Assembly (NCBI GenBank): GCA_051362555.1 | Contig: CM120643.1 | Span: 11,382,644 to 11,446,643 of the forward strand | DNA from: Lingula anatina | Lineage: Eukaryota > Animalia > Brachiopoda | DNA: 64,000 bases | Reading direction: 5' to 3' | Shown here: in pieces, positions 49,899 to 64,000 of the stretch | Layout of the letters: each line of letters starts with the position of its first letter | How positions within the stretch are numbered: position 1 is the first letter of the stretch | The notes under the pieces: generated by a model | Databases searched by the model: none | Seen by the model: only the letters and a program-made list of their open reading frames with translations | What the model was told of the DNA's origin: nothing | Position numbers and translations under genes: made by a program

Positions 49899-52119
49899 CT
49901 TGTAGCCTGTAGTATAAGTTTGCAACGGCAAAGCCGTTGCGGGAAAGTTACGAGGTCTCATGCATCGAGATGCAAGAGCCTCTTTCAATCCCCGAGTTCT
50001 TGTATATTGTCTTCTACCTCTATTGCTGTTGCACGTCTGTCCGTGGTGGTATTTTGGGTGGCTTGGATTTTTTCTTTTTTCTTTTTTTTTTTTTTTCTTT
50101 CTCCTTCCTCTTACGCTGGCCGCCCCTCCAGCTTGTGTATTTTTTTCCAGATGATTCTTTTCTTTCTTTTTTTTTTTTCCTTGTTTCCGCCGTGATTATT
50201 CCAATTCTTTCACCTTGTCTCCGATCGTCGGGTGACCAGATTTTTTCCTTAATTTTGAATTGGTGTTGCCCTTTTCAGGGGCAGTGGTATTTTCTCCGGT
50301 CGTCGGGAGACCGAAGCCGCCAGGTTTTTCGTGCACGATCTGTATCATTATTTATATAAATCAAGGGTAGTATTTTTGCCTGGTTTGCTTAGTATTATGT
50401 TTTTCAGCTTTAGTTCTTTAAATAGGAGGTTATTTTCAAACCTGCTGATTGTTTTTGTGCCCAGAAAAAATAGTCTGCTTGATATATATTCAATGTTGGC
50501 CAGCTCGTGCAGAGTTGTAATTCGGGTACTTGTAGGAAGTTTGAGTGCTATGCGTAGCGCTCTATTTTGAATTTTTTGGAGGTCGTTGAGCCTTGTTTTT
50601 TTGGTAGCCGCTAGTATGACCGCACCGTATTCGAGTATGGGTCGAATGAATGATTTGTATAATTTTAGGAGGCAGGCACTCGAAGCCCCCCAGTTTGTAC
50701 CTCTCAGTCTGATAAGAAGGCCAGTTCTTTTCCTGGCTCTTTTCACTATATTGTCGACGTGTTTTTTAAATGATAGTTTCCTATCAAATGTGATTCCTAG
50801 CAGTGTTACTTCCTCACATGTTTCTAAACGGTCACCAAAAAGTGTGAGGTTGAGCTTAGGTTGTTGATTTGATTTTGAAAAGATGATTAATTGTGTTTTT
50901 TTTGGTGTTTAGTTTAATCCGCCATAGAGAGCACCATAGTTCGAGATCCTTTATCACACCCGTCAGTCTAGTTTCTATGTTTTTGACATTTTTGCATGAT
51001 GTCCACATGCCCAAATCGTCTGCAAATTGAGAGACCTCGGTGTTGTATCTTGGGTTTATTGGTAGGTCGTTCACATATATTAGGAATAGCAACGGGCTGA
51101 TTACAGACCCCTGAGGCGTGCCAGCATTAAGACTTACATATTCGGATGCCTCGCCTTTGATTCTGACCTTGATCTTTCTGTCTTTCAAAAAAGATGACAG
51201 CAAGCGGACAATCTTAACTGGCAGGTTACTATGTGCTAATTTGTACCTTAACCCAGCGTGCCAAACTGAGTCAAAAGCCTTCTCCACGTCCAGCATCATA
51301 GCGCCCGTAGCCCAGCCTTTGTTCATTGCCAATTGTGCACTTTCAGCTAATCTGAGCACATGCTCCATTCCTTCTTTCTTGCTCATGTACGCTCTTTGCC
51401 ATTTATTGAAAAATTGGTCATTTTCTAGTTTTTCTTTTATTCTAGTGGCGATTATTCTCTCGAATAGTTTGCCTAGGCAGCTTAGCAGGCTGATCGGTCT
51501 GTAATTCGTTGTTACTTTGTGATCTTTCTCAGGTTTGGGTATCATTATACCAGTTGCTTTTTTCCATATTGTGGGGAAATATCCCAACTGCAGACAGTTG
51601 TTATAAATGTCGCATAGTTTGTTTTTCAGACATTCAGGCGCTTTTTTAATTATCCCGTTTGTTATTGTGTCGTCACCTGGTGACGTGTTTTTTGTATTTT
51701 TCAGATTTCCGTTAAGTTCATCTATTGTGATTTTATCTAGAATTTTGTGATCGTCCCCTTCTTCTAGTGTCGGGTTAGATAAGGGATCGAATTTGTGTTT
51801 GTTTTTAACGACGTAGTTTTCCACCACCACTTTAAAACCGTCGTCGAATATGACCCCCTCGTGGGTGTTATGTATCTTGCCAAGGGTATTTGCAAATGCA
51901 TTTGCTTTCTCCGCATCGTTTGTTGTAAGTTGCCCATTTTCTTTGAGTACAGGCTTTTCAGATGTTTCTTTAGCAGTGCCAGTGCTAGTTAGCCTTTTAA
52001 ACATGTCCCAGAAGGTCTTGTCCATTTTTCTTTCATTTAGCATAGAGGTAGCGGTTTCCCAAGCTTTTTGTTTTTCTTTTTTGATGGCTTCTTTGACCCG
52101 TTTTGTCATATAGTTGTAC
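49899..52119 (-). mobile_element. 5'-truncated non-LTR retrotransposon (Jockey/I-group LINE) with 14-bp TSD
   Basis: RT half of ORF2 is homologous to 56616-58386. TSD GCACTATGCCTCGG at 49885-49898 and 52120-52133. 3' hairpin at 49922-49940. Confidence 0.95.
50348..52119 (-). pseudogene. Truncated, frameshifted LINE ORF2 (RT and C-terminal domain)
   Basis: Motifs YRPISLL, DVEKAFDSVWH, GTPQGSVISP, QFADD. A +1 base in the T-run at ~50896-50903, relative to the intact copy, splits it into the ORFs 50856-52160 and 50348-50746. No endonuclease domain. Confidence 0.9.
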
Positions 52120-52780: not shown

Positions 52781-52818
52781 GGTCCTTTTCAGGACCACTA
52801 CAAAAATCAGAAAAGCTA
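52781..52818 (+). terminator. H3 histone 3' stem-loop and HDE
   Basis: GGTCCTTTTCAGGACC at 52781-52796, then CAGAAAAGCTA at 52808-52818. Confidence 0.95.
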
Positions 52819-54066: not shown

Positions 54067-54918
54067 TACGGAGCTTTGTTAGTATCATATTAACTTTTTT
54101 CCTATTTTCATTTAAGTTTTATTTTATGGAATTTTCACCGCGGTGAAAATAATTTACACCGCGGTGGAAAATAATTTACACCGCGGTGGAAAATAATTTT
54201 CACCGCGGTGGTAATTCCTGGCCATCTCGGCCCGGGTGATGAATAGGTAATGAGAACCTTACATTTGCCAGATGTCGTCACGGTGCATGCTATTGTACAT
54301 ACAGAAGGCTGGTGGATCTGTTCGTGGGGCCACTGCCGTTAACTTAGGTTTCCCATCTATATTTACCACCTATATAATTAAAGTCCCGCTTGCAGTTTTA
54401 TGCAAAGGGAATCCCATTGTTATTACTAAATACTTAACGTTAATTTTGGACAATGTATTTTTAAATATTTGTGTGATGTGTTAACCCATTCATCTTATCT
54501 TAAAAGATGTAATCTCGGTTTCCTTGGAGAGGTTTCTTTCTACCAATACTCCCAATAATACGCGTTATTACAAAGGGAAAAGCGACGTACAACATTGCAG
54601 CATTTTGGTGATTTTTAATCTATGCGAATACTGCCCGCCTCCTCCACATTCCTGGGATGATTGGCACATAGACCGGTTAAACCGCGTGCATGTGCATGTG
54701 AGTGTCTTTATCAACTTCCTTCCCAGAAATCTGGTAATTTTTGGATTCGTATAACCTACATGTATGCATCACCCGGGCTGAGATGGCCAGGAATTACCAA
54801 CGCGGCGAAAATTATTTTCCACCGCGGTGAAAATTAATTCCCACCGCGGTGTAAATTCCGTATAATAAAACTTAAATGAAAATAAGAAAAGTTAATATGA
54901 TACTAACAAAGCTCCGTA
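54067..54918. mobile_element. Non-autonomous TIR DNA transposon (MITE), IS3EU-like termini
   Basis: Long TIRs at 54067-54241 and 54767-54918 starting TACGGAGCTTTGTTAGTATC. 6-bp direct repeat CATAGA at 54061-54066 and 54919-54924. Subterminal CACCGCGGTG palindromic repeats. No transposase. Confidence 0.9.
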
Positions 54919-55612: not shown

Positions 55613-55651
55613 TAGCTTTTCCTTGACTATGAGGTGGTCCTGAAAAGGACC
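55613..55651 (-). terminator. H2A histone 3' stem-loop and HDE
   Basis: Minus strand GGTCCTTTTCAGGACC (55636-55651), then CAAGGAAAAGCTA. Confidence 0.95.
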
Positions 55652-56056: not shown

Positions 56057-56254
56057 CTTGTACGTTTTCTTTTGATACAACAATTGACCAAAGAATGGCG
56101 AAATGATGATGTATAGGTATGTGTCGGCGAAGCCGACACGGGAAAGTTACGAAGTCTCGTGCATTAAAATACAAGAGCTTCTTTCAATCCCCAAAACGTG
56201 TTTATTGTCTTCTACCTCTATTGTTTGTCTGTACGTGGTTTTGGCCTCGCTTGG

Positions 56255-56305
<51 letters not shown>

Positions 56306-56615
56306 ACCGTCTCTTTCCAGTTTGCGCGCTGGCCGCCCCTTCCAGCTTGTTAATTTTTTCCAGATGTTTGTTAATATAAATATTTTTATATATAATATAC
56401 ATATATTATATACCTTTTTTCCTCCGCCTTTATAGTATTATTGTGTTTTCTCATTCCATTTCCTTGTCTCTGGTCATCGGGAGCCCAGATGTGTTTATCC
56501 TTATTTTGTGGACTGAGGTTGCCCTTTTCAGGGTTGTATTTTTCCTTTCTTCCTCCGGTCATCGGGAGACCGGGGTCGCTACCGTTAGACCGTTTCATAT
56601 GCACAATTTGTACCA

Positions 56616-59342
56616 TTATTTATATAAGTCAAGGGTAGTATTTTTGCCTGGTTTGCTTAATATTATGTTTTTTAGCTTAAGTTCTTTGAATAGATGGCTA
56701 TTTTCGAACCTGCTAATTGTTTTTGTGCCCAGAAAAAATAGTCTGCTTGATATATATTCAATGTTGGCCAGCTTGTGCAGCGTTACGATCGAAGTTTTTG
56801 TTGGTAATTTGAGCGCTATTCGTAGCGCTCTATTCTGGATTTTTTGCAGATCTTTGAGCCTTGTCTTGTTGATGCCAGCTAGTATAACTGCCCCGTACTC
56901 AAGTACGGGCCGAATGAAGGATTTATATAGTTTGAGGAGGCAGGCACTCGATGCCCCCCAGTTTGTTCCTCTGAGTCTTATGAGAAGGCCAGTTCTTTTC
57001 CTAGCTCTTTTCACTGTGTTGTCTACGTGTTTTTTGAAACCTAGTTTTCTGTCGAATGTGATTCCCAGCAGTGTGACTTCCTCACATGTTTCTAATCGGT
57101 CGCCAAATAATGTGAGGTTAAGCTTGGGTTGTTCATTTGATTTTGAAAAGATGATTAATTGTGTTTTCTTGGTGTTTAGTTTTATCCGCCATAGAGAGCA
57201 CCATAATTCGAGATCCTTTATCACGCCCGTCAGTCTGATTTCTATGCTTTTTACATTTTTGCATGATGTCCACATGCCTAAATCGTCTGCAAATTGAGAG
57301 ACCTCGGTGTTGTATCTTGGGTTTATTGGTAGGTCGTTCACATATATTAGAAATAGCAACGGGCTGATTACAGACCCCTGAGGCGTGCCAGCATTGAGAC
57401 TAACATATTCGGATTCCTCGCCTTTGATTCTGACCTTGATCTTTCTGTCTTTCAAAAAAGATGACAGCAAGCGGACAATCTTAACTGGCAGGTTACTATT
57501 TGCTAGTTTGTACCTTAACCCAGCGTGCCAAACTGAGTCAAAAGCCTTCTCCACGTCCAGCATCATAGCGCCCGTAACCCAGCCTTTGTTTATTGCCAGT
57601 TGTGCACTTTCAGCTAGTCTTAACACATGTTCCATTCCTTCTTTCTTGCTCATGTACGCTCTTTGCCATTTATTGAAAAATTGGTCATTTTCTAGTTTTT
57701 CTTTTATTCTAGTGGCGATTATTCTCTCGAATAGTTTGCCTAGGCAGCTTAGCAGGCTGATCGGTCTATAATTCGTTGTTACTTTGTGATCTTTCTCAGG
57801 TTTGGGTATCATTATACCAGTCGCTTTTTTCCATATTGTGGGGAAATATCCCAACTGCAGACAGTTGTTATAAATGTCGCATAGTTTGTTTTTCAGACAT
57901 ACAGGCGCTTTTTTAATTATCCCGTATGTTATTGTGTCGTCACCTGGTGACGTGTTTTTTGTATTTTTCAGATTTCCGTTAAGTTCATCTATTGTGATTT
58001 TATCTAGAATTTTGTGATCGTCCCCTTCTTCTAATGTCGGGTTAGATAAGGGATCGAATTTGTGTTTGTTTTTACCGACGTAGTTTTCCACCACCGCTTT
58101 AAAACCGTCGTCGAATATGACCCCCTCGTGGGTGTTATGTATCTTGCCAAGGGTATTTGCAAATGCATTTGCTTTCTCCGCATCGTTTGTTGTAAGTTGC
58201 CCATTTTCTTTGAGTACAGGCTTTTCAGATGTTTCTTTAGCTTTGCCAGTGCTAGTTAGCCTTTTAAACATGTCCCAGAAGGTCTTGTCCATTTTTCTTT
58301 CATTTAGCATAGAGGTAGCGGTTTCCCAAGCTTTTTGTTTTTCTTTTTTGATGGCTTCTTTGACCCGTTTTGTCATATAGTTGTACATGATTTTATAGAA
58401 AGGGCCTTCTTTCTTTTGAGCCAGGCGTCTTAGTTTTCTTTTCAGTTTTATAAGCTTAAGGGTGTCCTCGCTTACTCTCCATACATTTTCTCGTACCTTT
58501 GTTTTTGGGCATGCGGTTTCAAGTGCATTTACTAGTGTCTCGGTCACATTCTCACAAGCTTCGTCTATTCCAGTGGTGGTAGGTGTGACTGCGTCGCCAT
58601 TTAGATTTTCAGAAATTAGATGGTCAAACAGTGGTTGGTTTATTTTTCTTGTATTCCGCCGTAAGACAGTTGGTGCTCTTGCTATTCGGTTATTCTGAAT
58701 GATTTTTACGTGTAGGGGTAGATGGTCGCTACCGACGTCTTCACCTACATAACAGTCCGCTATTTTCGAGTAAAGTTGAGTCGTGACAAAAGCCATGTCC
58801 AGCGTATCAGTATTGCCATTAGTGGCCATGTGCGTAGTTTCGCCATTATCATTAAGATTTATCAGATCTAGTTCCTCAGTTATGTCAAAGAGAACGTTTC
58901 CGTTATTGTTCGTTTTCTTGCAACCAAAGAAAGCGTGCTTACTGTTAAAATCGCCTATAAATAGACAATTTTGATATTGATCAGTAAAGTGCTTAAATAC
59001 TGCTTTGTCAGGGGTTGTATGAGGTGGGTTATACAGTGAAACTATAGCCGTTTTTATTTGATTTATCGTAGTTTCTATCCCCAGTATTTCAGCATTAAGG
59101 TTGCTGGTATTGATAGCTTGGAACTTTACATCTTTCTTAACGAGTATAGCCACTCCGCCTCCATGCGCATCTCTGTCCCTGCGCAACACCTGATAGCCGC
59201 TCACAGATATTTTTGTCTTCTCACTCAACTTTGTCTCGTTTATGCATACGATGTCAGGTTTATGCTCTACCAGATATTCAACTAAGAGTTGTTTCTTGGT
59301 TTTAAGACTGTTTATGTTGATATGCATCAGGTGTGCCGCCAT
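56616..59342 (-). CDS. LINE ORF2: APE endonuclease plus reverse transcriptase, 908 aa, no evident RNase H
   Basis: APE motifs HININSL, INETKL, GGGVAI, GDFNS, TLDM, SDHLP. RT motifs YRPISLL, DVEKAFDSVWH, PQGSVISP, FADD. C-terminal LYKSFIRPVLEYG. Confidence 0.97.
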   Translation of the reverse strand: MAAHLMHININSLKTKKQLLVEYLVEHKPDIVCINETKLSEKTKISVSGYQVLRRDRDAHGGGVAILVKKDVKFQAINTSNLNAEILGIETTINQIKTAIVSLYNPPHTTPDKAVFKHFTDQYQNCLFIGDFNSKHAFFGCKKTNNNGNVLFDITEELDLINLNDNGETTHMATNGNTDTLDMAFVTTQLYSKIADCYVGEDVGSDHLPLHVKIIQNNRIARAPTVLRRNTRKINQPLFDHLISENLNGDAVTPTTTGIDEACENVTETLVNALETACPKTKVRENVWRVSEDTLKLIKLKRKLRRLAQKKEGPFYKIMYNYMTKRVKEAIKKEKQKAWETATSMLNERKMDKTFWDMFKRLTSTGKAKETSEKPVLKENGQLTTNDAEKANAFANTLGKIHNTHEGVIFDDGFKAVVENYVGKNKHKFDPLSNPTLEEGDDHKILDKITIDELNGNLKNTKNTSPGDDTITYGIIKKAPVCLKNKLCDIYNNCLQLGYFPTIWKKATGIMIPKPEKDHKVTTNYRPISLLSCLGKLFERIIATRIKEKLENDQFFNKWQRAYMSKKEGMEHVLRLAESAQLAINKGWVTGAMMLDVEKAFDSVWHAGLRYKLANSNLPVKIVRLLSSFLKDRKIKVRIKGEESEYVSLNAGTPQGSVISPLLFLIYVNDLPINPRYNTEVSQFADDLGMWTSCKNVKSIEIRLTGVIKDLELWCSLWRIKLNTKKTQLIIFSKSNEQPKLNLTLFGDRLETCEEVTLLGITFDRKLGFKKHVDNTVKRARKRTGLLIRLRGTNWGASSACLLKLYKSFIRPVLEYGAVILAGINKTRLKDLQKIQNRALRIALKLPTKTSIVTLHKLANIEYISSRLFFLGTKTISRFENSHLFKELKLKNIILSKPGKNTTLDLYK

Positions 59343-59386
59343 CTTTGGGTAGGGGTTTGATGCGTGTTAGTGTGTTTGAGTCTGTT

Positions 59387-61090
59387 TTACTTAAAGGCAA
59401 CGTGGTGGATAGTTTCACCATCTATGCTGACCTTGTAAGTAGTTGCTACAGCCTCTGCTATGTCTTTACATATGTCGCTTTCGTTTGCCTGTATTTTTAG
59501 TCTTTTTGAAGTCACTTTGATCAGTAATTTGGCTAGGCATATGGCCAGTTTGATAGATTCAGCAACATTCCCTTTCTTGGCATTGTCTATTGATATGCGT
59601 TTTTGTTCGGTGTTCATTTCTTTTTTATACACCTTGCATCCTTTGAAAGATGCCGGGTGTTCTTCTTTACAATTGGCACATTTGCGGGTGCTTTCTTTGC
59701 ACTCCTTATGACTGTGCGCCCCGCCACAGTTTTTGCAAGTCTCGGCTGACTTGCAGTGTTCGGCTACGTGCCCGAACTGTTGACACTTGTAGCACTGTTG
59801 TACTGGTGCTGTGACTGGCTTGTAGTCACGAATTTTGTATTTTTGATAACCCAGCAATAAACCGTTTTCAATCAACTCTTTCTTTTGATTTTTGTTTTCA
59901 CACGTAATTTTCACCTTGTTAATTTCGCTTCCTGTTTTAGCGCTGAACATACGCTTAGCTAACAGACCTTTTTCTTTTCTAATTTCATCGTCTGTTATTG
60001 AAACTGCTATGTTGCAGATGACCACGCACAAATTCTCTTTACTTTGTTTTTTGTTCGCTACTTTTCTTATGCCAACCTCATTTAGTTGGCTTTCTTTATT
60101 TTTCAGGGCAAGTAGCTTCTCAGCCGAAACCTCATCTTTGGGAAAGATAAGGGTGTTACCTTTCTTTGTTTTCACAATTTTGGTGATATCGGCATCACCA
60201 AGTACCTTCTTTAACTTGAGTGGATTGTCATCCAGGTGCCTAGGCAAATTTTCTAAAAGTATGGGCCTAGGTCTTTCTGCTTTTTTGTTTTCTTGTCCGC
60301 TTTTTTTAGTTTTAGAGTGGACAACGGTCCACTCTGATTCCTCGGAGTTTCCCTCCTCGCCCCGTGGAGGGTCGTCTGCTGGAGCCTTCTCGGCGATTTT
60401 GCGGAAATCGCCTCCCACAGTCTCCACCTTCTCGTTCAATTTGGCCCTTTTCTCGGCCTTTTTCCTTGCTTTCTTTGAGAGATTATCTCCCTCCTTCTCC
60501 CCTCTAATGGGGCTGGTTTGGTCACCGACCAGAGGACCTGTCTTCCTCTTTTCCCCTTTTTTCTTTCTTTGCTCACTAACTGCCCAATCCATTTCGTTGT
60601 CCCCGGTCGTCGGGAGACCGGGTGTCTTGCCCTTTTTTGGATGGGTTTTGCCCTCTTCAGGGTCTATCATTTCTCTGGTCATCGGGAGACCAGAGATATC
60701 TGCCGCCTTTTTGTGGCCCTGAAAAGGACCACTGAGAGCTGGTACACGGCCCTGCTCTGTGTTTTGAATCTCCTCGCCCCTTGGAGAATTAACCAACCGA
60801 TTTGCAGGTACACGGCCCTGCTCCGCATCTGAATTCTCCTCGCCCATGGGAGAAGTTGTACTCGTATCTTCGCTTGCAGGTACACGGTCCTGCTCCGACA
60901 CCTGCATCTCCTCGCCCCTGGGAGAGCAATCCTGTTCATACTTACCTTCGCCACAGGGATCAGCTAGCAGAGCTTGCCGAAGCTGTGGCGGTAGAGATGC
61001 CAGTACCTCCCTAAGGTGGTTCAACATCTCTACCTCATCGTCCTTAAAAGGACGTTTTGTGTTGGAAACAACAGCCTTAGCGTAGGACAT
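59387..61090 (-). CDS. LINE ORF1 gag-like nucleic-acid-binding protein with three zinc knuckles
   Basis: CYKCQQFGHVAEHC, CKNCGGAHSHKEC and CANCKEEHPASFKGC. Likely start MSYAKAV at 61090; an in-frame upstream ATG exists at 61162. Confidence 0.93.
   Translation of the reverse strand: MSYAKAVVSNTKRPFKDDEVEMLNHLREVLASLPPQLRQALLADPCGEGKYEQDCSPRGEEMQVSEQDRVPASEDTSTTSPMGEENSDAEQGRVPANRLVNSPRGEEIQNTEQGRVPALSGPFQGHKKAADISGLPMTREMIDPEEGKTHPKKGKTPGLPTTGDNEMDWAVSEQRKKKGEKRKTGPLVGDQTSPIRGEKEGDNLSKKARKKAEKRAKLNEKVETVGGDFRKIAEKAPADDPPRGEEGNSEESEWTVVHSKTKKSGQENKKAERPRPILLENLPRHLDDNPLKLKKVLGDADITKIVKTKKGNTLIFPKDEVSAEKLLALKNKESQLNEVGIRKVANKKQSKENLCVVICNIAVSITDDEIRKEKGLLAKRMFSAKTGSEINKVKITCENKNQKKELIENGLLLGYQKYKIRDYKPVTAPVQQCYKCQQFGHVAEHCKSAETCKNCGGAHSHKECKESTRKCANCKEEHPASFKGCKVYKKEMNTEQKRISIDNAKKGNVAESIKLAICLAKLLIKVTSKRLKIQANESDICKDIAEAVATTYKVSIDGETIHHVAFK
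60715..60730 (-). other. Histone-type 3' stem-loop embedded in LINE ORF1 (sense strand)
   Basis: Minus strand GGTCCTTTTCAGGGCC followed by ACAAA; 15/16 identical to the stem-loop of the four neighbouring histone genes. Confidence 0.75.
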
Positions 61091-61166
61091 TATTGGTATT
61101 AGCTTGGTATTCAATGAATGATGGAATGTCGAATGATCGAATGAATGATCGAATCGAATCATGATG

Positions 61167-61201
61167 AGAATGGCGAAAATTATTCAAAATAGGTATTTAT
61201 A
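61167..61201 (-). promoter_or_regulatory. Displaced H2A core promoter (TATAAATA plus CATTC cap motif), now directly upstream of the LINE
   Basis: Minus strand GGCTATAAATACCTATTTTGAATAATTTTCGCCATTCT. TATA at 61194-61201; the cap-motif A at 61171 is 30 nt away. Removing the LINE rejoins it to the H2A 5' UTR. Confidence 0.85.
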
Positions 61202-62352: not shown

Positions 62353-62392
62353 GGTCCTTTTCAGGACCACCCATGTTTTCCAAGAAAAGATA
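62353..62392 (+). terminator. H2B histone 3' stem-loop and HDE
   Basis: GGTCCTTTTCAGGACC at 62353-62368, ACCCA, then CAAGAAAAGATA at 62381-62392. Confidence 0.95.
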
Positions 62393-63730
62393 TACCAGTA
62401 CGTTAACGTACATGCTTATATATATTCCATTTTATCTAAATTCTGTACATTTCCTGGTTCTGTTATATTAGATGATTTAACATTTATGTGATGCCTCACT
62501 TTATTTAACATAACGATCATGTAGCAAAGCTGTCTGAAAAATGCTTTACGCTCACAATATTCAGCATATATACCCATGAAATTTTATAGCCACACCGCAT
62601 GATTTCTAGAAAAAATATAGTAAAATCTTTTTAATTTATCTCTTTATGTTTATGTCAGGAAAAGTTAGTAAATAACAATACAAAAATCTTGATAGCTTCC
62701 AAGTTCTAACCATGTGTGAAAGGCAATTCAACAAGAAACCTCTTTGCAATATACAGCCCTTTTACTAACATTCATACATGTATTACATTATTGATAGAAG
62801 TGCAATATAAACATATATTTGTTAAAAAAAAAAAAAAGATTTTCGCAAACTAGTTTAAAAGACCCAATTGAAACAAACTCTCAAGCACAGTTTCTGTTCA
62901 CACTTTCTTATCATACGTATGTATTGGTGGAAATGTGCAATGTAGTTTTCACGATAGTTCTCAACACAAAAACATACTTAGACTACAACATAACCAGTGC
63001 ATATTATACTGATCAATATGAAGGTATTTACTTTTAAATAGTACATAATTTTCCCTTAAACATTACTGTGCTTTGATGCAGTGCTTTTGAGCAACTCTTT
63101 TATCAGAGGATATGTGGCACGTACCTTTCTAGAACTTTCAGTAACAGCCAATGAATTAGTTTAATGCCCCCTCCCCCTTTTTTTACATTAGAAACACAAG
63201 CCCACTTAAATATGGCATGGGTTCAGGGGCATTTTGGAAATTATAAATTGAATGTCATCTTTGGACAACTTTTTCCACAGATCCTACATATTTCTGACAT
63301 TTTCATTTTATGCCTTTATAATTGTCATGTCTCAGGTGTGTATGTACCGGTCGGCAACATTGATGAAACGTGTTTTAAATTGTCAATCTGAAATGAATAA
63401 ATTGTTTTCCAAAGAACAACCATTAATTGCATACCGTCATGTTGAACGCTGTTCAAAATCATGATTAAATTACAATGAATACTAAAATCTTGTAACGTAT
63501 CATATTTTATAGCGATTTACAACCCAAGGGAATTCCCAGCCTCACTTTCGTCACTGAGACGATATCAACTTCCGGTGTATTGCACATGGGGAGTGCAACG
63601 TACACATTAAATTCTGGACTCTTGCTAAAAGAATCGACACAAGGTGGTATATTAAGTCTGAGTTACGCACTTGAGGTTTGCTATTTTCAAAAGAGAATTA
63701 ATGCTTAAATGTTTTGTGATGATGTGACCT

Positions 63731-64000
63731 CTTGTCTTCATTAAAGCGTATCCCCTTTCTTCTGGCTGTATCTAATACAACGCGCAGAGTCGCATCGTGG
63801 TCAGATCCGTCTTCCTGCCAACCTGCTATGATAAGGTCGGCGGCGATTCCGGTACACCCTGGAATGTCTTTGAAGACTTCTTCAATCTTGGCTTGGAAGA
63901 CGTCTTGAGATAGCGAGAGGCCAAAGGGTAGTCTGTTGTATCTAAATCTTCCAAAGGGCGTATTGAAGGTAGTCAGAAGAGAACTTTCTTCATCTAACGT
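63731..64000 (-). mobile_element. Ty3/Gypsy LTR-retrotransposon reverse transcriptase fragment, probably inactive; runs off the right edge
   Basis: Manual translation: TLDEESSLLTTFNTPFGRFRYNRLPFGLSLSQDVFQAKIEEVFKDIPGCTGIAADLII...GIRFNEDK. The catalytic xADD reads IAAD, and the frame stops shortly after FNEDK. Confidence 0.88.

Follow-up and report, generated by a model that had tools for sequence, protein, structure and literature searches.

The window analysed here, 64,000 nt of Lingula anatina contig CM120643.1, joins a satellite array to a cluster of core histone genes. The satellite, a 361-nt unit present in ~130 copies with 96-98% identity, occupies positions 1-47900 (about 48 kb) and adjoins the histone cluster, in which the order is H4, a truncated LINE, H3, a small inverted-repeat element, H2A, a full LINE and H2B. 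The small element (54067-54918, between H2A and H3) is 850 nt long and MITE-like, with long terminal inverted repeats and 22-nt internal repeats; at 63700-64000 the minus strand has a likeness, judged by eye, to a fragment of an LTR-retrotransposon reverse transcriptase. Each host gene carries a histone stem-loop (H4, 49185-49170; H3, 52781-52796; H2A, 55636..55651 on the minus strand; H2B, 62353-62368) with an HDE at +14 to +16, matching in 9/9 letters in all four genes. The Rfam Histone3 scores of these loops span 33.2-41.4 bits, the gathering cut-off being 34, and their top pair has a probability of 0.63-0.83 in predicted folds.

The full LINE (copy 1, 56104..61166), which lies on the minus strand together with all its features named below, is 5,063 nt long, has both ORFs open, ends in a (CAT)n tail and is inserted in the sense direction at the H2A cap site. 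ORF1 (59387..61162) encodes 591 aa from the ATG at 61162, or 567 aa from the ATG at 61090, with a low-complexity N-terminus and three CCHC knuckles; ORF2 (56616..59342) encodes 908 aa comprising an apurinic endonuclease and a reverse transcriptase, and no match to RNase H was found in it. The element is flanked by a 12-nt target-site duplication (TSD), TTTCGCCATTCT, whose 5′ copy is at 61178-61167 (61167..61178) and whose 3′ copy is at 56103-56092 (56092..56103), 47-36 nt upstream of the H2A ATG; an APE/RT element bounded by TSDs is what is found in site- or position-specific non-LTR retrotransposons. The first-pass annotation regarded the start site at 61171 as captured by the element. The TSD contains the H2A cap motif CATT, and the empty H2A site is present in contigs of two other DNA runs (joints 56096/56097/56102 to 61183); the start site therefore belongs to the host promoter and now faces into copy 1. 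The host H2A promoter is duplicated as a target-site repeat around the element, and its TATAAATA (61194..61201, minus strand) now stands upstream of copy 1, the start site being placed from the sequence.

The truncated LINE (copy 2, 49899..52119, minus strand) lacks its 5′ part, is 88% identical to copy 1 and has the TSD CCGAGGCATAGTGC. It sits in the H3/H4 divergent promoter, 362 nt before the H4 ATG and off any cap site; one of the two copies of this family, both within the 64-kb window, is thus at a cap site. The two copies share a 3′-terminal structure (56192-56121, that is 56121..56192, in copy 1; 49992-49921 in copy 2), made of two stems around a purine-rich internal loop, then a hairpin; copy 2 has compensatory changes in it, and it is common to the distant relatives L001, L004, L006, L010, L011, L014 and L017. 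This motif is likely the recognition signal of the reverse transcriptase.

A 16-mer within ORF1, GGTCCTTTTCAGGGCC at 60730-60715 followed by ACAAA, had been singled out as mimicry of histone mRNA. This hairpin, here called SL2 (60715..60730, minus strand; GGTCCT-TTTC-AGGGCC, codons GPFQGH), is indeed present, is 15/16 identical to the four host loops, is read in frame as SGPFQGH as reported, and lies at the 5′ edge of an internal insertion in ORF1. A scan of the window with GGYYCTTTTCAGRRCC, allowing up to two mismatches, gave 7 matches against 0.66 expected; the exact matches were five, namely the H4, H3, H2A and H2B loops and SL2, and 0.003 consensus matches are expected on the sense strand of the 5,063-nt element (3000 shuffles). 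In Rfam Histone3 SL2 reaches 18.4 bits (E 0.81), under the cut-off of 34. As had been noted, it has neither the 5′ AAAC flank (in its place is TCAGT, paired in prediction) nor an HDE, the best match being 5/9 letters, against 9/9 in the host genes. The two distances on which the mimicry had been partly built, 441 nt from 61171 to SL2 and 445 nt in H2A, are correct as figures; a histone-like distance was nevertheless discarded as a feature, since loops occur at 112 nt (the second loop of this element, SL1), 149-158 nt (the G001 relatives described below) and 436 nt from the element start, and host ATG-to-loop distances themselves range over 338-435 nt.

SL2 is kept in frame in an X5 contig covering 60425-60830 (4 differences) and in an X1 contig covering 60351-60775 (0 differences). 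A sister subfamily, ~10% diverged and recovered in X1 and X5 contigs, misses 60509-60775 with the frame kept, and among 150 ORF1 relatives none matches the SL2 region, none contains GPFQ and no best-scoring stretch begins before residue 174. A diverged variant retains 60708-60731 between unlike flanks (one X1 contig and 57 antisense X12 reads), the segment being known by its span and not by its letters. The 57 X12 reads derive from an antisense transcript in which a diverged fragment, 60927-60873 plus 60731-60708, combines one repeat unit with SL2.

The fold of SL2 depends on a downstream segment of ORF1, motif B (CCCTGAAGAGGGC, 60650..60662, minus strand), which complements the SL2 core and is predicted to form a 13-bp helix with it. 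The top pair of SL2 has a probability of 0.82-0.83 in the 8 predicted folds that stop before motif B, and of 0.0-0.11 in all 20 folds that reach it, the values being 0.003-0.098 in 16 of these, 0.11 or less in two and 0.0 in two, so that SL2 is predicted to be mostly masked by pairing with CCCUGAAGAGGGC, 53 nt downstream. SL2 is a weak SLBP candidate, likely a younger, secondary and mostly masked copy, and it is rather doubtful that it is itself functional. Motif B, which reads as the reverse complement of the core of the histone loop, could pair with the loops of host histone mRNAs in a 12-bp duplex of predicted energy -20.8 kcal/mol, against -9.3 and -5.7 for the hairpins. No antisense match resembling motif B was found in six G001 elements.

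The surroundings of SL2 suggest how it may have arisen. An in-frame insertion of 192 nt in ORF1 (60533..60724, minus strand) is paralogous to the family's 3′ UTR and has an A-rich end: ORF1 from 60716 to about 60530 aligns to the two 3′ UTRs with scores of 135 and 154 (best shuffles 74 and 79), and the SPxGEE/EQGRVPA repeat regains a fourth unit when the 192-nt span is skipped. On the sense strand of the element GGTCCT is found at two places only, 60730-60725 and 60538-60533; these are 64 codons apart and bound the insertion, the second directly after the A-rich tract. Motif B occurs also in the 3′ UTR of copy 1 (CCCTGAAAAGGGC, 56521..56533, minus strand), between two GGTC-TCCCGAY-GACC hairpins, and in that of copy 2 (50280-50268). 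SL2 would thus have formed when a piece of 3′ UTR entered ORF1 with a short 5′ inversion, its parts being GGTCCT from the duplicated target, TTTCAGGG as the reverse complement of the UTR motif B (CCCTGAAA), and the CC of the UTR spacer CCACAAAA. This layout would be the one expected of a twin-primed 5′ inversion, given the junction details typical of such events. The single mismatch of SL2 to the host loops (G14) is the letter predicted by motif B, and the spacer after SL2 is best matched by the spacer between B and the hairpin; the model requires a donor UTR with B before the first hairpin, and neither present UTR has one. Twin-primed L1 5′ inversions and U6/L1 chimeras, whose mechanism is described in the available part of PMC13174262, are two candidate routes to SL2, the product here being 16 nt long and in frame within ORF1.

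The GGTC-TCCCGAY-GACC hairpins number six (60691, 60619, 56571, 56486, 50312 and 50237, minus strand), share a conserved 7-nt loop and sit in tandem units of 72-85 nt. A hammerhead or other ribozyme was considered for motifs A/B and set aside, there being no Rfam match and no GAAA after the second stem.

A second loop, absent from the first-pass account, lies much closer to the cap. SL1 (CGTCCT-TTTA-AGGACG, codons RPFKDD; 61039..61054, minus strand) is 112 nt from the element 5′ end, and a relaxed loop scan of both strands of the 64 kb returned six matches, that is the four host loops, SL1 and SL2; 0.0055 loops are expected per element, and none of 2000 shuffles had two. In predicted folds the SL1 pair probabilities are 0.83-1.0 in 6 of 7 windows, the bottom pair falling to 0.42 in one. 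Its first pair is C-G, it is not listed in Rfam at E up to 10, and its best HDE match is 5/9, so it does not have the feature of U7 cleavage either. Histone stem-loops have U at loop positions 1 and 3, and SL1, SL2 and the four G001 loops all combine these with a 6-bp stem, a G-C second pair and a U-A top pair. SLBP contacts the A-rich 5′ flank (A3-A5) and the second G (G7), according to the available portions of PMC12775136 and PMC5435866; a flank rule was not found in the accessible part of PMC10388802. Among the element loops an A-rich flank belongs to SL1 alone (CACAAAA), not to SL2 or to the G001 loops (GCTCT). In the nearest ORF1 relative, P0123 (43%), compared as protein only, RPFQGD is aligned to RPFKDD (pairwise E 0.008), the changes falling on a free loop position and on a stem position that tolerates wobble pairing; among 5415 double changes there are 239 that leave such a loop possible at that place.

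Histone genes neighbour ORF2 relatives at one of 89 loci (L084, 36% identity) and at none of the other 88. L084 lies in G001, a bacterial MAG that holds ~90 kb of misbinned animal contigs, a contamination. Contigs C2, C3 and C5 of G001 consist of core-histone arrays with a 4.6-kb unit, in which there are 14 H3 genes and nine LINE insertions. Eight of the nine insertions, a count that covers the histone-array contigs only, are in sense and have a 5′ junction that lies over a CATT-like motif and precedes a histone ATG by 23-46 nt (p about 7e-14 with a 40-nt window per gene); four are at H4, with differing 5′ junctions, two at H2B, one at H2A and one at H3, whereas the ninth is 322 nt upstream of the ATG and in the opposite direction. 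Independent insertions recur, in this way, at one position of a multicopy target, and cap-site targeting in G001 can be accepted with very little doubt. A single family, whose (ATC)n tail is like that of the window's family, accounts for eight of the nine.

In this G001 family a histone-type loop is present at each of the four intact 5′ ends, at a distance of 149-158 nt from the start, and the ORF1 ATG follows it by 9-14 nt. The sequences are GGTTCT-TTTT-AGAACC, GGTTCT-TATT-AGAACC and, twice, GGCTCT-TCTT-AGGGCC, with pair probabilities of 0.95-1.0 in predicted folds. The differences amount to one U-A to C-G swap and one U-A to U-G change in the stem, and to position 2 only in the loop; all 32 cells of the alignment pair, with one two-sided and one wobble change. 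The chance that four such changes leave the loop rule intact is 0.6%, or 5.5% when only transitions are allowed, and a covariation shuffle test on the four sequences was not significant, 81 of 500 shuffles reaching the observed value. Loop position 2 was relaxed after the G001 loops had been seen, the wider rule adding 0 matches in the window and 6 in the 365,656 nt of the other 88 loci. One G001 loop scores 15.6 bits in Rfam, under the cut-off. The GCTCT flank of these loops is paralleled by a C-rich flank in their host, the loop of which, GGCCTT-TTTC-AAGGCC, differs from those of the elements, which keep pairing across subfamilies 77-84% identical. The loop that works would be the one next to the start of ORF1, which is SL1 in the window and the loop before the AUG in G001; this 5′ loop is quite probably under selection.

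The one insertion outside this family, C5b (L094, G001:C5:15425-20702), is of a distant family with 28-30% ORF2 identity; it occupies an H2B cap site with the TSD CATTTTA, and no stem-loop was found in it. The loop is therefore not required for targeting in every lineage, which weakens the earlier step from a loop in the RNA to targeting of the locus; C5b may possibly represent a third origin of histone start-site insertion. In the closer relatives with the ORF1 start on the contig (L001/L002, L004 and L008) neither a loop nor a histone neighbour was found, most flanks being short, and the trees place them between the two loop-bearing families. A single clade of both loop-bearing families was rejected by the AU test (p 0.012; LG+G4, 28/147 rows, the group having been named after the trees were seen), which implies either convergence or an old trait lost in the others. 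These trees comprise almost only unnamed proteins; among the ORF1 relatives, P0279 bears the label 'from mobile element jockey'. The first ORF1 search gave 2 weak matches and a search with P0123 gave 6, with the N-terminal motif in P0123 itself only; no relatives were found among viral contigs.

As to transcription, element reads in the poly(A) run X12 share the first-mate direction of H2A reads, that is sense; they cover 28 of 30 bins, drop above 61115 and are not attributable to individual copies, and run X15 contributed 10 reads. The sense poly(A) reads run past SL2, and no molecule ends are listed there, in data that are blind to non-poly(A) RNA. An insertion on a cap site in sense is one that the host promoter would drive, and copy 1 is likely transcribed from the histone promoter. 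An X5 contig joins the element 3′ end to the element 5′ UTR (61110 / 56111), which indicates copies arranged head to tail, the arrangement that insertion of a new copy into an already occupied start site would give.

The window element is likely a member of a group whose insertions go to histone start sites, and for its own family we consider cap-site targeting reasonably probable. A CATT-like motif is all that the target sites have in common, so the targeting would be positional, through the histone-promoter machinery. The LINE would be launched from the histone promoter, and its read-through RNA would end at the own loop of the downstream intact histone gene. An SLBP site at the ORF1 start could then make translation and the fate of the mRNP follow the histone programme (S phase, oocyte storage) and may help the RNP to return to the histone locus body; that SLBP is the ligand of the 5′ loop is considered somewhat probable. 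If SLBP does bind, gating of ORF1 translation and mRNP fate is put forward tentatively as the job of the loop, docking at the histone locus body is a weaker possibility and attenuation is improbable; gating ranks first because the read-through RNA would already end in a histone loop and because one cap-site family is loopless. SLBP engages U7 snRNP through FLASH, as stated in the accessible portion of PMC5435866.

The idea of histone stem-loop mimicry by a cap-site LINE survives through SL1 and the G001 loops and not through the flagged 16-mer, which is predicted to be masked, is absent from the sister subfamily and can be built from the element's own parts. The overall reading, a LINE of histone start sites with two loops in its first 450 nt, histone promoter transcription, a cap-proximal SLBP candidate and SL2 as secondary, is one we lean towards by a slight preponderance. 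A broader evolutionary proposal is advanced more cautiously, as a conjecture: that animal LINEs have more than once evolved insertion at the cap site of each of the four core histone genes, histone promoter use, and a 5′ histone loop for SLBP-timed translation and RNP return to the histone locus body.

Other explanations have to be weighed against this reading. SL2 might be a working, switchable SLBP site or attenuator, folding first on the nascent RNA and binding SLBP, or else being closed by motif B. Its near identity to the host loops, its being a free hairpin until B is made (P about 0.83), its preservation in frame in an intact, expressed subfamily (X5 and X1 contigs) and the segment retained in the diverged variant would agree with such a role; for a viral frameshift RNA, moreover, the available text of PMC12166091 reports that SLBP binds within a coding region. 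We judge it improbable, considering that SL2 is without an A-rich flank and HDE, that it is missing with the frame kept in the sister subfamily in two DNA runs, that sense poly(A) reads, blind to non-poly(A) RNA, continue past it with no ends listed, and that the 24 nt of the diverged variant are known by span only.

Equally improbable, in our estimate, is that the loops are neutral fossils, mature histone mRNA ends acquired by template switching as in U6/L1 chimeras. SL2 followed by ACAA without an HDE, and then by a truncated 3′ UTR, does have the layout of a sense chimera under the mechanism in the available part of PMC13174262, and the host ends GGACCAC overlap the UTR spacer CCAC; however, template switching needs an extra change at position 14, which motif B explains directly, no further histone sequence stands beside any loop, and the G001 loops stay paired while differing from those of their host. 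The hairpins could, instead, act for the element itself, as binding places for ORF1p/ORF2p or in the control of scanning during translation, with an incidental likeness to histone loops: the family is rich in short hairpins, including the motif B reverse complement of the loop core, there is no HDE anywhere, and the flanks are unlike those of the host. Against this, the match covers exactly the G2-C pair, the U-A pair and loop U1/U3 in two lineages, both at histone start sites, and the loop is absent in the non-histone relatives checked, which leaves this explanation with a small probability as well.

Compared with the histone mRNA 3′ stem-loop bound by SLBP (RF00032), the LINE loops have the same 6-bp stem, 4-nt U-rich loop, G-C second pair and U-A top pair, and SL1 also the A-rich 5′ flank, but they are cap-proximal, lie in or beside the start of a transposon ORF1, have no HDE and score below the Rfam cut-off. 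Being internal in the RNA, not at its 3′ end, SL1, SL2 and the G001 loops fail as histone 3′ ends, but they may work like SLBP sites. Competing base-pairing is able to inactivate a histone loop, as shown in PMC5368982. As for the element itself, the three-CCHC ORF1, the APE-RT ORF2 without RNase H, the short-repeat tail and the 7-14 nt TSDs (one of 24) are those of the Jockey/I group, from which cap-site insertion and histone-type loops set it apart.

Position-specific insertion is known from other elements; Ty3 inserts at Pol III start sites. The LINE TRE5-A of Dictyostelium inserts ~50 bp upstream of tRNA genes via TFIIIB/C (PMC3159450). What the window LINE has in common with both is an insertion point set by its distance from the start site in a multicopy gene family, and target sites with little sequence in common; it differs in having Pol II protein-coding histone genes as targets and in carrying a mimic of a host mRNA. 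Like R1, R2, the Tx1 group, Utopia and NeSL it has a multicopy target, with host-promoter co-transcription as in R2, whereas four different histone genes are struck here at one relative position. The targets of site-specific non-LTR elements given in the available part of PMC8869645 are rRNA, tRNA, SL exons, snRNA, microsatellites, telomeres and other TEs; histone genes are absent from that list, and the word 'histone' occurs 0 times in that part. In the main texts of the open-access literature searched, no report was found of a LINE that has histone start sites as its target or bears a histone loop. If the reading is true, Pol II histone start sites would be a new target class for LINEs, retrotransposition would be tied to the S phase and oocyte histone programmes, and nature would have supplied an integrase directed to a locus that is present in many copies and very active. 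A non-histone RNA with its SLBP site near the cap would also be a natural test of the role of SLBP away from the 3′ end.

Some further features of these elements were observed. The 3′-terminal RNA motif is clade-wide and consists of a short stem, a UUGAAG / GAAACUU internal loop, a variable second stem and a hairpin; an Rfam search with it gave no match. At L084:5520-5700 three 60-nt 3′ UTR repeats have interleaved GACCA/TGGTC and GTCCT/AGGAC arms, which by eye could form a pseudoknot. Residues 28-44 of ORF1 (61009-60959) have a weak match, below the cut-off, to the Pfam UBM (ubiquitin-binding) family (E 0.0086), and this stretch lies in the N-terminal helix that aligns with P0123.
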